Positions 2,275 to 50,639 of a stretch of DNA of 64,000 nucleotides are shown here, one piece after another. The position numbers and the translations under genes were made by a program. The notes beneath the pieces are model-generated. The model did not search any database and was not told the origin of the DNA. It saw only the letters and a program-made list of their open reading frames with translations. Numbering within the stretch: the first letter of the stretch is position 1; every line of letters begins with the position of its first letter. The DNA lies in the NCBI GenBank assembly GCA_963796285.1, contig CAWCKW010000012.1, positions 32,001 through 96,000 on the forward strand, given 5' to 3'. The stretch is from Nitrospirota bacterium (GTDB taxonomy: Bacteria > Nitrospirota > UBA9217).

Positions 2275-2880
2275 CTATTCCTTGAACCTCGTTTCTTCCT
2301 TCTGGATATTTTCCAGCGCTTCTTTTTTCGTTTTACAGTCGATGCAGTACCGGGCAAGCGGGTTTACCCCGAGGCGTTTGATGTCGATCTCTTCACCGCA
2401 GTCCTCGCACTGGCCGTATGAGTTATTCTGGAGCTTCCGGAAGGCATCGGCGATGTCTTTGTACTGCTCATACTTCATTTCCAGAAGCGAGTAATCGATG
2501 CCCTGGTCCATGTCGAGCGCGGACTGGTCGGCGCTGTCCATGGCCGAGTCGATCTTCTGTCCCGTCTCCCGGACCAGCTTTCGGCCCATCTGGGCCTCGA
2601 GGTTTTCCACAACCTCGTTCCGTTTTTTGAGCAGTAATTTTGACAGCAGCTCATTCCGCTTCTTCACGGCCGCAGATATTCGCGGTTTGGCCGCCGCGAT
2701 CTTTGCGGATTTTGTCGGTGTTCTTTTTACGGCTTTGGCGGAGGCCTTCTTGACCTTTATCTTTTTTACCGTGCTTTTCTTCGCGCCGGCCTTCTTTGCG
2801 ACTTTTTTAGCTGACTTTTTTACGGTGGGTTTCACAGGCTTGGTAGCTTTTTTCTTTTTTGCGCCTTTTTTTACCGCCAT
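2275..2880 (-). CDS. TraR/DksA-family C4 zinc-finger regulator with Lys/Ala-rich N-terminal extension
   Basis: DSADQS coiled-coil tip, YGQCEDCGEEI...RL...P.ARYCIDC. Confidence 0.88.
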   Translation of the reverse strand: MAVKKGAKKKKATKPVKPTVKKSAKKVAKKAGAKKSTVKKIKVKKASAKAVKRTPTKSAKIAAAKPRISAAVKKRNELLSKLLLKKRNEVVENLEAQMGRKLVRETGQKIDSAMDSADQSALDMDQGIDYSLLEMKYEQYKDIADAFRKLQNNSYGQCEDCGEEIDIKRLGVNPLARYCIDCKTKKEALENIQKEETRFKE

Positions 2881-47102: not shown

Positions 47103-47564
47103 CTATTTTTTAATGGAAGACTTCAGCCAGTTCGCATCGGCCTTTTTGATGTTACCGGGAATATCCCTGCTCCATTTTTCATATGCTGTCGCGCTGCAAT
47201 TCAGGTATAGCTTCCCGTCAACGATCTTCCACACTTCAGGATCGGTTTTGGCTATTCGTGCTTCTGTCAGGGCCCAGGCGCAATAACCGTCATATTGCGG
47301 AGCGTATTTCTCCGGACTGGCCGCAAACAGGTCCCTGTTCTCTTTGGTCGAGAAATACCAGGTCATGTCATGCCACTTGAAGGTAAATGACTCGTTGCCT
47401 TTTAGTGCTTTGCCGGCCGTGAAATATGCGACGGTATCGTACCCCTTTATTGCCAAATCATCTGCCGGTGGATTTCCGGCAGCTATGCCGCCGAACCCGG
47501 TCAATAGCAGCAATACAAAGGATAAACTCATGAGAATCCCAGCTGATGCGTTCTGAAGTTTCAT
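47103..47564 (-). CDS. YHS-domain protein (Cys form of the YHS (seleno)protein family)
   Basis: AIKGYDTVAYF, PEKYAPQYDGYCAW, WKIVDGKLYLN, KADANW. Confidence 0.88.
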   Translation of the reverse strand: MKLQNASAGILMSLSFVLLLLTGFGGIAAGNPPADDLAIKGYDTVAYFTAGKALKGNESFTFKWHDMTWYFSTKENRDLFAASPEKYAPQYDGYCAWALTEARIAKTDPEVWKIVDGKLYLNCSATAYEKWSRDIPGNIKKADANWLKSSIKK

Positions 47565-48175: not shown

Positions 48176-48460
48176 TCAATACGCGACCGTAAAGCGCCGG
48201 CGGATGTGAGTGGGTCGCTCCAGTTCGTCGAGAAGAGCGACTGCGTAGTCCTCGACCGAAATGCGGCTCACGCCGGCTGAGGAAGCTCCAGTCCACGTTG
48301 CTCGTGCTCGCACGGAAGAGCTCCAGGGCCTGGACTTGGGCAGGCCTCCGCTTTCCATTCTGCAGGGAATTGGGGCGTGTCGATTTAAACGCACTCCAAG
48401 CGCGACCAGAAGGCTGCCGCCTCCGCCCCACACCAGGCGCTTCACACCCGCCCAGGGGAG
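48176..48460 (-). pseudogene. Remnant of a NAD(P)H-binding oxidoreductase
   Basis: GVKRLV.GGGGSL ... SRISVEDYAVALLDELERPTHIRRRFTVAY C-terminus; middle scrambled, N-terminus missing. Confidence 0.7.
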
Positions 48461-48626
48461 AGGTAGTGCCATAAATTGAGGATAGCAGTGACGGTGAGAC
48501 TTGTCAATGACAGCACCTAAGCCCATTGGCTAAGGCCTACACCAGATGATCCAAGGTTAATTTGCTTGCGAAAGTGGAAAGCGCGGGTTATTATGACACT
48601 TCGGTTAAGGTCACGGGATATATATC

Positions 48627-49157
48627 ATGCACCGCTTATTCGACAAATCTTCTATTTTATTTATAAAAATAGCCATTCTATCTCTTCTGACCGTCGTTCC
48701 TTTTTCTTATGCGGCCTCAAACCCTATACGGGAATCGGCACCGGACTTTACGTTATCCGACATGCAGGGCATCGCGCACAAGCTCGCTGATTATCGCGGC
48801 AGCGTAGTGGTTTTGAATTTCTGGGCCTCATGGTGTCCGGAATGCGTGATCGAGATGCCTTCTCTCGATAGCCTCTACAACCGGCTGAAAAAGGACGGTC
48901 TGATGGTGATCGGGGTCTCCGTCGACAGGACCCGCGGAGACATCGCTCAGTTGGCCGGCAAAGTGTCGTATCCAATACTGCTTGACGAAAAAGGAGACGT
49001 GTTCGTAAAAAAATACACGATTACCCGGCTGCCGGCCACGATCATCATCGATCGCGATGGGGCCATCGTTAAGAAGATCTTCGGTGGACGGGATTTCAGC
49101 TCCGGGGCCTTTATCGGGGAAATGACCGGTCTCTTGCAGGAGAAAAAGGCGCAATGA
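48627..49157 (+). CDS. TlpA-family exported thiol-disulfide oxidoreductase
   Basis: Signal/TM segment, APDFTL, NFWASWCPEC, LP.T.IID. Confidence 0.9.
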   Translation: MHRLFDKSSILFIKIAILSLLTVVPFSYAASNPIRESAPDFTLSDMQGIAHKLADYRGSVVVLNFWASWCPECVIEMPSLDSLYNRLKKDGLMVIGVSVDRTRGDIAQLAGKVSYPILLDEKGDVFVKKYTITRLPATIIIDRDGAIVKKIFGGRDFSSGAFIGEMTGLLQEKKAQ

Positions 49158-49507
49158 AACGCTTTTACGGGCATATCGGGGCGGCACTCTGCGTGGTCCT
49201 CCTGGCAGGCTGCGGTCCCTCGACATTCTTAATAGACAAGGCGGGCACCTCCGCGTACTTCGGTCGTAACAATCAGTATCTTAACAAGAAGCTGTGCACC
49301 AGTGGCGAATTGAGGCTGATACTCGCGGACGCGGACCTTCCCCGGGAGATAGAAAGCGATTTCTATCGCTATACCTGCTCGGAGGAGAGGTCCTACGATA
49401 AAGTCATTTCCCTCTATCTTGTTCTGACGCCGGTGGAAAAGATGCAATTAAAGCGGGCGTTCGAAAAACACGGGTACGAAGTGAATCGCCTGCACTGCTG
49501 AGGCTGA
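49154..49507 (+). CDS. Lipoprotein, predicted selenoprotein ending His-Cys-Sec-Gly
   Basis: Lipobox LAGC. The 3' end reads CAC TGC TGA GGC TGA, and a SECIS-like hairpin starts 11 nt after the first TGA. If UGA is a stop, the CDS ends at 49501. Confidence 0.7.
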
Positions 49508-49512
49508 CGCAC

Positions 49513-49528
49513 TGCCCCGGTCGGGGCA
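49513..49528 (+). promoter_or_regulatory. Candidate SECIS element
   Basis: TGCCCC-GGTC-GGGGCA, 11 nt after UGA 49499-49501; no U-tract follows. Confidence 0.6.
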
Positions 49529-49670
49529 CAAAAACCTGCATGGATGGAGCGGAAAACGTTGGCTGACAAACGGTGCTGAACCAGTGCCGTGAGCGGCCCG
49601 GGTAGCCGTAGTTCGCATATCATTCGCACGTTGTGGCTGTCTGCATGTGAGGCGCCACGGAGCATTCACC

Positions 49671-50639
49671 ATGGCTAATATCATCCCTTTCCTCATACAG
49701 CACGGATACTCCGTAGTGTTTATCTGGGTCTTTGCAGAAACAATGGGGCTTCCCATACCGAGCGCTCCTCTGCTTATCACGGTCGGGACCATGGCCGGTG
49801 TCGGACAGTTGAACCTGTTCCTCTGCATAGGATCAGGCGTCTGTGCAGCGCTGGTGAGCGACCTGTTTTGGTTCGCTATGGGAAGGCGACGCGGAGGCAA
49901 GGTGCTATCCGTGCTTTGCCGCATATCTCTCGAGCCTGACTCCTGCGTCCGGAGGACGGAAAGTATCTTTACCCGGTACGGCGGCCGCTCCCTTCTGGTA
50001 ACTAAATTTTTCCCCGGATTTGGCGCTGTGTCGACTCCGATGGCGGGCATGATCGGCATGCGTCTGTGGCGTTTTTTACTTTTCGACGGTATGGGCATCA
50101 TCGTCTGGGTCGGCGCCTATACACTTCTCGGGTATATATTCAGTAGAAAACTCGATCGTGCGTTGGATTATGCCGCGGGAATGGGCAAAACGCTCTCGGT
50201 GTTGGTGGCCGGCGGGCTGGCGCTGTATATCCTCCGGAAGTATGCCTTGCGCCGGCGCATTTTGCGCGAGCTCTACACCGCGCGCATCACCCCGGAAGAG
50301 CTGAAGCAGAGGCTGGACGCGGGCGAAGATGTCGTTATCATCGATCTGCGCCACGAACTTGACTTTGAACATGATCCCTATATCATACCCGGCGCTTTGC
50401 GGATCCCCCTGGATGAGGTAGCGCGCCATCCGATCGTTTCGAGCGATCGCGAGATCGTAGCCTATTGTACGTGCCCCAACGAAGCCTCCAGCGCCCAGGT
50501 GGTGCTGCGGCTATCCCAGCAGGGGATTACGCGCATTCGGCCGCTTGCCGGCGGTTTTCACGCCTGGCGCGACCGCGATTATCCCGTAGTACTGGCGGAA
50601 GGCAGAAATCATAAAGATCCAAAGTCCAGAATATTTTAA
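49671..50639 (+). CDS. DedA/VTT membrane protein fused to a rhodanese domain
   Basis: GLPIP, G..SD..WF..GR, KFFPG; C-terminal IIDLR..IPGA..YCTCPNEASSA..LAGGFHAW. Confidence 0.9.
   Translation: MANIIPFLIQHGYSVVFIWVFAETMGLPIPSAPLLITVGTMAGVGQLNLFLCIGSGVCAALVSDLFWFAMGRRRGGKVLSVLCRISLEPDSCVRRTESIFTRYGGRSLLVTKFFPGFGAVSTPMAGMIGMRLWRFLLFDGMGIIVWVGAYTLLGYIFSRKLDRALDYAAGMGKTLSVLVAGGLALYILRKYALRRRILRELYTARITPEELKQRLDAGEDVVIIDLRHELDFEHDPYIIPGALRIPLDEVARHPIVSSDREIVAYCTCPNEASSAQVVLRLSQQGITRIRPLAGGFHAWRDRDYPVVLAEGRNHKDPKSRIF

Follow-up and report, generated by a model that had tools for sequence, protein, structure and literature searches.

A stretch of 64,000 nucleotides (nt) from an assembled Nitrospirota genome, hereafter the window, carries on its forward strand a two-gene unit in which a gene for an exported thioredoxin-fold reductase is followed by a gene for a small lipoprotein that appears to stop directly after a Cys. 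The analysis presented here indicates that selenocysteine (Sec) is very probably inserted at the apparent stop codon, the TGA at 49499-49501, which would give a protein ending in an adjacent Cys-Sec pair. Comparison of its homologs points to a real selenoprotein family, in support of the interpretation offered by an original prediction made from the letters of the window alone. What that prediction had observed was confirmed, and its reading as a whole, namely a lipid-anchored Cys-Sec protein with a TlpA-like partner, is considered probable.

The lipoprotein open reading frame (ORF) spans 49154-49501 in the ORF list when the TGA is included, and comprises 115 codons up to 49498. Its end reads CAC-TGC-TGA-GGC-TGA, as had been reported, and direct inspection of the sequence places the first TGA at 49499-49501, GGC at 49502-49504 and the second TGA at 49505-49507. 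Read through the first TGA, a delimitation based on the sequence together with the family evidence, the gene would extend over 49154-49507 with 117 codons and a stop, its product ending ...NRLHC-U-G and the putative Sec being residue 116, right behind Cys115. The protein features that the prediction had listed are all present, i.e. a signal peptide with an LLAGC lipobox (49154-49213, Cys20 codon at 49211-49213) and internal Cys residues in KLCTS (Cys48, codon 49295-49297) and YTCS (Cys75, codon 49376-49378). The preceding gene (48627-49157, forward strand) encodes a TlpA/ResA-like exported thiol:disulfide reductase of 176 residues with a WCPEC motif, and the ORF list confirms the described ATGA overlap between the two. 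Behind the first TGA, the gap of 11 nt (49502-49512) and the hairpin TGCCCC-GGTC-GGGGCA (49513-49528) are also as predicted; the bases directly 3' of the hairpin, CAAAAACC, contain no T run. As only one codon would follow the Sec, the hairpin lies wholly in the 3' untranslated region, with the second TGA, the presumed true stop, 5 nt 5' of its stem.

Homologs of the lipoprotein are numerous and nameless. A word-indexed search returned 14 close clusters, all unnamed or 'hypothetical', which end at the Cys except for one ending HCCS and two, P0014 and P0015, whose C-termini look frameshifted and which were left out of the alignments. A profile search of 1.84 billion representatives yielded 48 proteins at an expectation value (E) <= 0.001, 28 of them at E <= 1e-10. 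In an alignment of 37 sequences, sharing 22-50% identity with the window protein, neither Cys48 nor Cys75 varies, and the lipobox Cys is almost as constant (Cys20 in at least 90% of the homologs); the VLLAGC lipobox, read from the sequence, is as expected of a bacterial lipoprotein. Searches of Pfam and NCBIfam produced no model matching the window lipoprotein and, beyond signal-peptide-level noise, none matching the 37 homologs. The expectation that gene callers would overlook such a family is borne out by its database copies, which all stop at the Cys and are unnamed or 'hypothetical'. At the genome level, a six-frame search of 61 relatives detected the family in 18, and a subsequent one of 401 sampled Nitrospirota genomes detected it in 47, representing nine GTDB families, while a peptide-pattern scan of genome contigs, with patterns suited to close relatives only, returned a single locus. 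All 46 assessable family-bearing genomes have at least one TGA (Sec) form; in the 47th a contig end cuts the gene.

Stop codon usage was compared on the DNA of every copy, drawn from Nitrospirota genomes and metagenomes, after locating the end of the profile match, and in 63 of the 65 distinct copies the match extends to the C-terminal end of the model. Of these 63, 55 close their frame at the conserved terminal Cys or no more than two codons from it, in every case with TGA. TAA and TAG were found in none, which is the specificity foreseen in the original prediction. Closure occurs at the terminal Cys itself in 48 copies, one residue later (C-G, C-S or C-A) in six and after a Ser replacing the Cys in one. 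The next in-frame stop behind the 55 TGAs is mixed (TAA 22, TGA 18, TAG 15); divergence among the sequences is thus large enough for stop codons to have been exchanged, but the first TGA is retained throughout. Mixed usage was also recorded in two controls, the adjacent TlpA-like genes (n = 48; TGA 29, TAA 13, TAG 6) and long ORFs in the same loci (n = 153; TAA 66, TGA 50, TAG 37). No formal probability is stated for the exclusive use of TGA, because the copies are related.

The other eight of the 63 copies either end in Cys-Cys (GCCAD, PCCD, PCCE, HCCS) or carry an extension of 25-30 residues containing one Cys, and their stops are TAA in two, TAG in two and TGA in four. Non-Sec homologs with a Cys at the TGA position, which had been anticipated, therefore exist (...HCCS, ...PCCD, ...PCCE, ...GCCAD and ...ECCGP); one of them, L030, reads TGC TGT AGC TGA at the position and belongs to a protein cluster of four members. 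Judged by the aligned copies, the position tolerates Sec or Cys only. The stretch between the two stops is far less constrained, its length ranging from 0 to 13 residues (none in four copies, one residue in 19, longer in the rest) and its sequence not being conserved; in the longest tails (...SGRIQ) the hairpin itself would be translated. A conserved short tail with Gly after the Sec, as originally proposed, is accordingly not a property of the family, whose motif is Cys-Sec and not Cys-Sec-Gly. Variant motifs occur in seven copies (L076, L078, L079, L081, L085, L086 and L093), six of them Cys-x-Sec (C-G-U, C-S-U or C-A-U) and one Ser-Sec, and all seven keep the hairpin at the usual distance.

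The hairpin, too, recurs in the family. Its GGTC-loop form, with a stem of at least 4 base pairs (bp), is found in 41 of the 55 copies with the loop starting 16-26 nt after the TGA, mostly at 17 or 21, and the remaining copies have hairpins at the same place with variant loops that contain G, e.g. CGUGU, GUG, GGUAC and GGUCC. For the covariation analysis 31 distinct GGTC hairpins were aligned, excluding three with 5-nt loops or bulges and all non-GGTC copies, so that loop identity in this set is by construction. Their 7-bp stem has 90.8% of cells paired, with six of the seven pairs varying on both sides, and the covariation score of 0.707 compares with 0.207 in shuffles (0 of 500 reach the observed value) and with 0.05-0.22 when the partner is slid by 1-3 columns. 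Hairpin, GGUC-type loop and spacing are thus conserved in the homologs together with compensatory stem changes, as the original prediction had suggested they might be. When the 61-nt stretch of the window was folded whole, it was no better than shuffles (z 0.76); the 16-nt hairpin is regarded as more than a chance structure because it is conserved and covaries in relatives.

The model of the bacterial selenocysteine insertion sequence (SECIS), as outlined in PMC13188914, comprises a loop of 3-9 nt with a G in its two leading positions, a stem of 4-16 bp, a distance of 16-37 nt from the UGA and a free energy of -7.5 kcal/mol or lower. With its GGUC loop, 6-bp stem, TGA-loop distance of 17 nt and -10.8 kcal/mol, the window hairpin falls within all four ranges. 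In a scan with a strict, bulge-free version of the published model, the pass rate is 42 of 54 for the testable copies, 24 of 249 for control stop codons and 6 of 111 for control TGAs. Such a hairpin is present in none of the seven Cys-Cys or long-extension copies other than L030. The likeness to the E. coli fdhF element that had been pointed out holds on the K-12 sequence (TGA, 11 nt, GGTTGCA-GGTC-TGCACC). Both stems begin 11 nt past the UGA and both have a GGUC apical loop, at 18 nt in fdhF and 17 nt here; however, the fdhF element is situated in coding sequence, with a bulged U and a lower stem of greater length, whereas that of the window is a simple 6-bp untranslated hairpin. SelB and tRNA-Sec would recode the first TGA under the direction of the GGUC-loop hairpin 11 nt downstream. 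The second UGA lies 11 nt from the loop, under the 16-nt minimum of the model, and would, as had been argued, be too near for recoding; translation would terminate there (49505-49507), leaving a mature C-terminus ...His-Cys-Sec-Gly.

If the TGA were instead an ordinary stop, the protein would end ...LHC and the hairpin would be a terminator, a stabiliser against 3' exonucleases or a binding site for a protein unrelated to SelB. The hairpin does end the two-gene unit, the genes downstream vary by lineage, L030 retains it with a Cys at the position, and Rfam holds no matching family, a search of 49300-49700 at a permissive threshold having given chance matches only. As a terminator the hairpin is poor, in line with the original prediction: no T run follows 49528, and a terminator scan of 48300-49900 does not call it. 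In a metatranscriptomic library (run X19), a contig of 491 nt with 19 differences spans 49242-49660, taking in the gene's 3' half, the two TGAs, the hairpin and a further 130 nt. RNA running through the hairpin is weakly hinted at by this contig, as DNA can be carried over into such libraries; the public-run data consist of contigs, from which transcript ends and expression level cannot be read, and the runs concerned contained at most 0.42 of the sampled words, too little for naming a habitat. An ordinary stop would also leave unexplained the exclusive TGA, the fixed TGA-loop spacing, the G-first loop shared with E. coli fdhF, the alignment of a Cys with the TGA in hairpin-less paralogs, and the restriction of the family to genomes with Sec machinery. 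This alternative is considered very unlikely.

The Sec machinery, whose presence the prediction had called for, is encoded in the source genome, where selA (595.4 bits, cut-off 268), selB (369.6 bits, cut-off 242), tRNA-Sec (selC; 64 bits, cut-off 47) and selD (350 bits) all score above their curated cut-offs. The genes selC, selB and selA are located on the contig of the window, 53-63 kilobases (kb) beyond the lipoprotein gene, and selD has an in-frame TGA of its own. Two copies of selD score identically (350.1 bits, E 1.2e-104; C1:101902-102822 and C8:19066-19986), each with one in-frame TGA and with identical sequence in the 63 nt after it, and a third copy (C9:16273-17201) is split into three frames; together with a contamination estimate of 5%, this suggests duplicated or mixed contigs in the assembly. 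Across the sampled genomes, cross-reading of two tables places selA (E <= 1e-30) in 43 of the 47 that bear the family and in 150 of the 354 that do not.

Several observations weigh against Sec insertion or against the wider reading built on it. Four of the 47 family-bearing genomes have no selA, even at E <= 0.001. Two of these (98% and 96% complete) have a tRNA-Sec above the cut-off, while the other two (89% and 78% complete) do not; in the 89%-complete genome the lipoprotein gene is 18 kb from the contig end, nearer than the sel genes are in the genome of the window, and an assembly gap is therefore plausible. The strict SECIS scan fails in 12 of 54 copies, owing to weak AU-rich stems, bulges or the lack of a G in the first two loop bases. 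L030 keeps its hairpin despite the Cys codon (TGT), which implies either a recent change or a second role of the hairpin, and the database homolog P0037 ends ...YFPCGWD, with Trp at the Sec position where its relatives have C-G-TGA-D, through either a TGA to TGG change or a sequencing variant. The selD of the source genome has a different hairpin, with a GUA loop 33 nt from its TGA, and a genome-wide scan for a TGA followed by a GGTC- or GGTA-loop hairpin gave 23 candidates, none other than the present gene being convincing. The most gene-like among the 23 turned out to be the antisense strand of selD and was rejected. The genes lying downstream and in the wider surroundings differ between loci (transketolase, M23 peptidase, cold-shock protein and others) and reveal no common pathway, and gene order is what ties the TlpA-like reductase to the lipoprotein. 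Finally, termination at the UGA would cost two residues only, and a mixed product may be formed.

Carried further, the last point becomes a reading in its own right, in which a leaky UGA lets most chains end at Cys115, and the Cys-Sec form, made in small amount and depending on selenium, is an isoform differing in function or regulation. Bacterial Sec insertion competes with release factor 2, a product two residues shorter would be expected to fold normally (the model of residues 1-115 is confident, see below), and the tails after the Sec are short and unconserved. On the other hand, selection has kept the TGA in 55 of 55 copies along with the hairpin, and where the hairpin has been lost the position is taken by Cys, so that the second chalcogen residue evidently matters. 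A predominantly truncated product is considered improbable, and it would in any case be compatible with Sec insertion, differing from it in stoichiometry alone.

The reductase encoded upstream exceeds the cut-offs of three Pfam models, AhpC-TSA (94.2 bits), Redoxin (82.1 bits) and Thioredoxin_8 (57.1 bits). The closest NCBIfam models, ResA (106.7 bits, cut-off 170) and TlpA (69.7 bits, cut-off 230), score below theirs, and the protein is therefore termed TlpA-like and assigned to neither named enzyme. Both Cys residues of its CxxC are invariant in 38 syntenic homologs, and its hydrophobic N-terminus, taken as an export signal, was judged by eye. The proposed synteny is upheld: a TlpA-like gene, placed by script and confirmed with Pfam, lies no more than 250 nt upstream on the same strand in 45 of the 51 assessable Sec-type copies, i.e. 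those with at least 300 nt of upstream sequence, the gap ranging between -1 and 159 nt (median about 14). In the remaining six, the copy is the second of a tandem, is a fragment (two cases) or is preceded by CopD, a DUF3373 gene or an AraC-type regulator. Upstream of the six assessable Cys-Cys or long-extension copies no TlpA-like gene is present. Judging from this synteny, a functional partnership between the lipoprotein and the TlpA-like reductase is likely, and the ATGA overlap would couple the translation of the two from one message. A predicted complex of the TlpA-like domain with the mature lipoprotein scored 0.26, below the mark of 0.32, and speaks neither for nor against binding.

A DUF3373 gene adjoins the lipoprotein/TlpA pair in 20 loci; the passage of PMC4827864 that treats this family lists it as TCDB 1.B.62, a putative outer-membrane pore family. 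No further conserved partner (CcdA/DsbD, cytochromes or sulfur enzymes) was found in the 16-kb neighbourhoods of seven genomes or among the immediate downstream genes.

Some loci depart from the simple pair. A same-genus genome has four paralogs (L044/L051 at G006:C23:26035-27298, L050 and L052), and one cassette there consists of an AraC-type regulator, a Cys-Cys form (GCCAD, with a TAA stop and without the hairpin), a TlpA-like gene and a Sec form. In the same genome, an AraC-type regulator precedes the Sec-type L052, which has pyridine nucleotide-disulfide oxidoreductase genes on its flanks. In another genome, a single TlpA-like gene and a DUF3373 gene precede two tandem Sec-type copies, L082 and L100 (G240:C1:100764-101674), and an ArsR-type regulator is encoded about 500 nt upstream of the DUF3373 gene. 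On the metagenome contig of L031 (2688-3126), a cut-off TlpA-like gene (first 109 residues) abuts a lipoprotein remnant (last 42 residues), an arrangement due to either a deletion or an assembly chimera.

An AlphaFold2 model of residues 1-115 of the lipoprotein, calculated with the 37-sequence alignment, has a predicted local distance difference test score (pLDDT) of 91.2 and a predicted template modelling score (pTM) of 0.78. The part behind the signal peptide consists of a beta-hairpin and five helices, the final residues being modelled less confidently. No relative was found with Foldseek in the PDB (best E 1.4), nor a solved one with VIA-align among 48,161 chains, where the best Z of 4.8 was given by generic helical bundles; in the ESM Atlas, the best score of 0.85 is under the level at which a match is meaningful.

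According to the proposed mechanism, a small lipid-anchored periplasmic protein would carry a flexible tail whose Cys-Sec pair cycles between selenenylsulfide and selenolthiol, and the TlpA-like protein, as gene order suggests, would keep this pair reduced with electrons from the cytoplasm. By analogy, the tail may act as a redox arm, operating in trans on a periplasmic oxidant or on an oxidised substrate; the chance of this is put at somewhat below even, and it is favoured over a site for metals or chalcogens. A broader and more tentative proposal is that the envelope module of DUF3373 porin, TlpA-like reductase and Cys-Sec lipoprotein constitutes an extracytoplasmic selenium redox relay. In such a relay, a membrane-tethered selenenylsulfide arm would work in trans in the style of thioredoxin reductase and be recharged by TlpA, and the substrate, e.g. 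peroxide, polysulfide or another chalcogen species, would enter via the porin in these anaerobic Nitrospirota.

With Sec inserted all the same, the Cys-Sec tail could alternatively be a high-affinity site for soft metals or chalcogens (Hg, Cu(I), sulfane sulfur or selenium), making the protein a periplasmic chaperone or carrier for which TlpA would merely keep the tail reduced and ready to bind. There is a precedent in Bradyrhizobium, where TlpA keeps the copper chaperone ScoI reduced. Metal-related genes are indeed met beside some family members, namely CopD (L076), a cation-efflux protein (L075) and an ArsR-type regulator (L100), each at a single locus, and a member of the YHS-domain (seleno)protein family lies 1.1 kb upstream in the window (161 bits). 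A 3' fragment of the family ending ...GPCCE (L096, genome G196) is located between a MerP-like gene and merA (TIGR02053, 513.6 bits, cut-off 454); merT and a CopZ-type gene accompany them. The porin gene that adjoins the pair in 20 loci may be seen in the same light, given the Geobacter pair of a porin and a rhodanese-like lipoprotein for selenite uptake that is cited among the references of PMC13510729. Moreover, CU and CC motifs are described in the relevant part of bioRxiv 10.1101/2022.07.06.499078 as concentrating in proteins thought to handle mercury and organometallics. Against a metal or chalcogen site, every metal-related neighbour was met just once, the copy in the mer operon is truncated and preceded by an in-frame TGA, what is conserved beside the lipoprotein is a reductase and not a transporter or metal pump, and structure searches recognised no metal-binding fold. 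Such a site is rated as less likely than not, yet as an alternative to be taken seriously. The fragment L096 itself (G196:C60, about 2462-2666, reverse strand) reads ...KVVSLY...GYSINSGPCCE, with the in-frame TGA further upstream and a MerP-like/UxxU metal-binding gene adjoining; it hints at a link to mercury handling, or is a gene remnant.

The redox arm that is favoured here has a counterpart in mammalian thioredoxin reductase, whose C-terminal Gly-Cys-Sec-Gly arm is thought to cycle between selenenylsulfide and selenolthiol and to be reduced by a dithiol centre. The two share an adjacent Cys-Sec near the C-terminus, in the window even Cys-Sec-Gly. There is no homology, however, and while the mammalian arm belongs to a flavoprotein and is reduced within the dimer, here it would sit on a separate helical periplasmic lipoprotein of 95 residues, the presumed reductant being a separate CxxC protein. 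Membrane-tethered periplasmic thioredoxin-fold reductases are exemplified by TlpA with ScoI/CoxB in Bradyrhizobium and by ResA/CcmG with apocytochrome c. The present system is alike in that the reductase would be dedicated to one or few small clients with paired cysteines, but the client is unrelated and has a Cys-Sec tail, and no conserved cytochrome or copper-centre genes are found nearby.

Closer in kind are two families of small proteins with Cys-Sec ends. In the sections of Haft and Gwadz (bioRxiv 10.1101/2022.07.06.499078) that deal with them, SaoC lipoproteins are reported to end in Cys-Cys, with 3 of 52 ending Cys-UGA-UAG followed by a stem-loop, and a Lys-Cys-Sec-COOH DUF466 family is also cited. 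As characterised in those sections, SaoC (NF040734) resembles the present family in being a small secreted protein, mostly a lipoprotein, with Cys-Cys or in a few cases Cys-Sec ends, in having a UGA, an immediate stop and, in the 3' untranslated region, a stem-loop whose loop contains G, and in having formerly been 'dark matter'. It differs in length (about 158 residues versus about 115 here), and the Sec form, an exception there (3/52), is the rule here (55/63). SaoC occurs in anaerobes within a nine-gene SAO neighbourhood containing an ATP-binding cassette transporter and a MerB-like protein (SaoL), whereas this family stands behind a TlpA-like reductase, often with a DUF3373 porin, in Nitrospirota and has no SAO neighbourhood. 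None of the 37 family members matches NF040734 at E <= 0.1. KCU-star/DUF466 (NF033934; Campylobacter, Helicobacter), according to the same sections, is likewise small and ends Lys-Cys-Sec-COOH, with non-Sec relatives ending Cys-Cys, and its E. coli DUF466 relatives adjoin pyruvate uptake transporters; KCU-star has no TlpA partner, and the 37 family members do not match NF033934.

A C-terminal Cys-Sec with the SECIS behind the stop is therefore an established kind, known from SaoC and KCU-star, and in this respect the proposed protein has precedents. The family itself, on the other hand, is apparently a previously undescribed selenoprotein family. The table of a 2026 review (PMC13188914) lists 119 prokaryotic selenoprotein families with model accessions, its CU-motif entries being SaoL, HgcA, SaoC, MbdU, the Csac_0668 family and KCU-star; none of these six models matches the family, which is absent among the 119 tabulated. 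The full-text literature yielded no description of it, a search whose scope left aside the supplementary candidate lists of surveys, which may contain it.

Other features of the locus are less closely bound to the system. A promoter-like site, TTGCGA-17 nt-TATTAT, precedes the two-gene unit on the forward strand (48566-48594), matching the consensus weakly, at 9 of 12 positions; three such sites were counted in the region versus 0.9 expected from shuffles. Downstream, on the forward strand, lies a DedA(VTT)-rhodanese fusion gene (49647-50639) identified with Pfam and NCBIfam, which is conserved at this place in the closest relatives only (L028, L029, L030 and L033) and whose membership in the system is uncertain. 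Its rhodanese part scores 77.8 bits with the rhodanese-related (seleno)protein model NF041203, which it resembles without reaching the cut-off of 115, and its active-site region is CTC, with Cys where the NF041203 family has Sec. The YHS protein, encoded on the reverse strand at 47103-47564, opposite to the TlpA-like gene and 1.1 kb from it, is an exported protein of 153 residues that matches the YHS domain-containing (seleno)protein model NF041384 (161.3 bits, cut-off 70). Its gene lacks an in-frame TGA, and the protein therefore probably represents the Cys version of a family with selenoprotein members elsewhere.

The lipoproteins described here would represent a selenoprotein family hidden from automatic annotation, because read-through adds only 0-13 residues to their products, and the locus offers a clean natural example of a bacterial SECIS placed wholly behind a stop codon. 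A dedicated pairing of a periplasmic thioredoxin-fold reductase with a Cys-Sec client is suggested as well. If the proposed reading is true, it would provide a new route for selenium chemistry in the cell envelope of anaerobes and a new class of clients for TlpA-type reductases.

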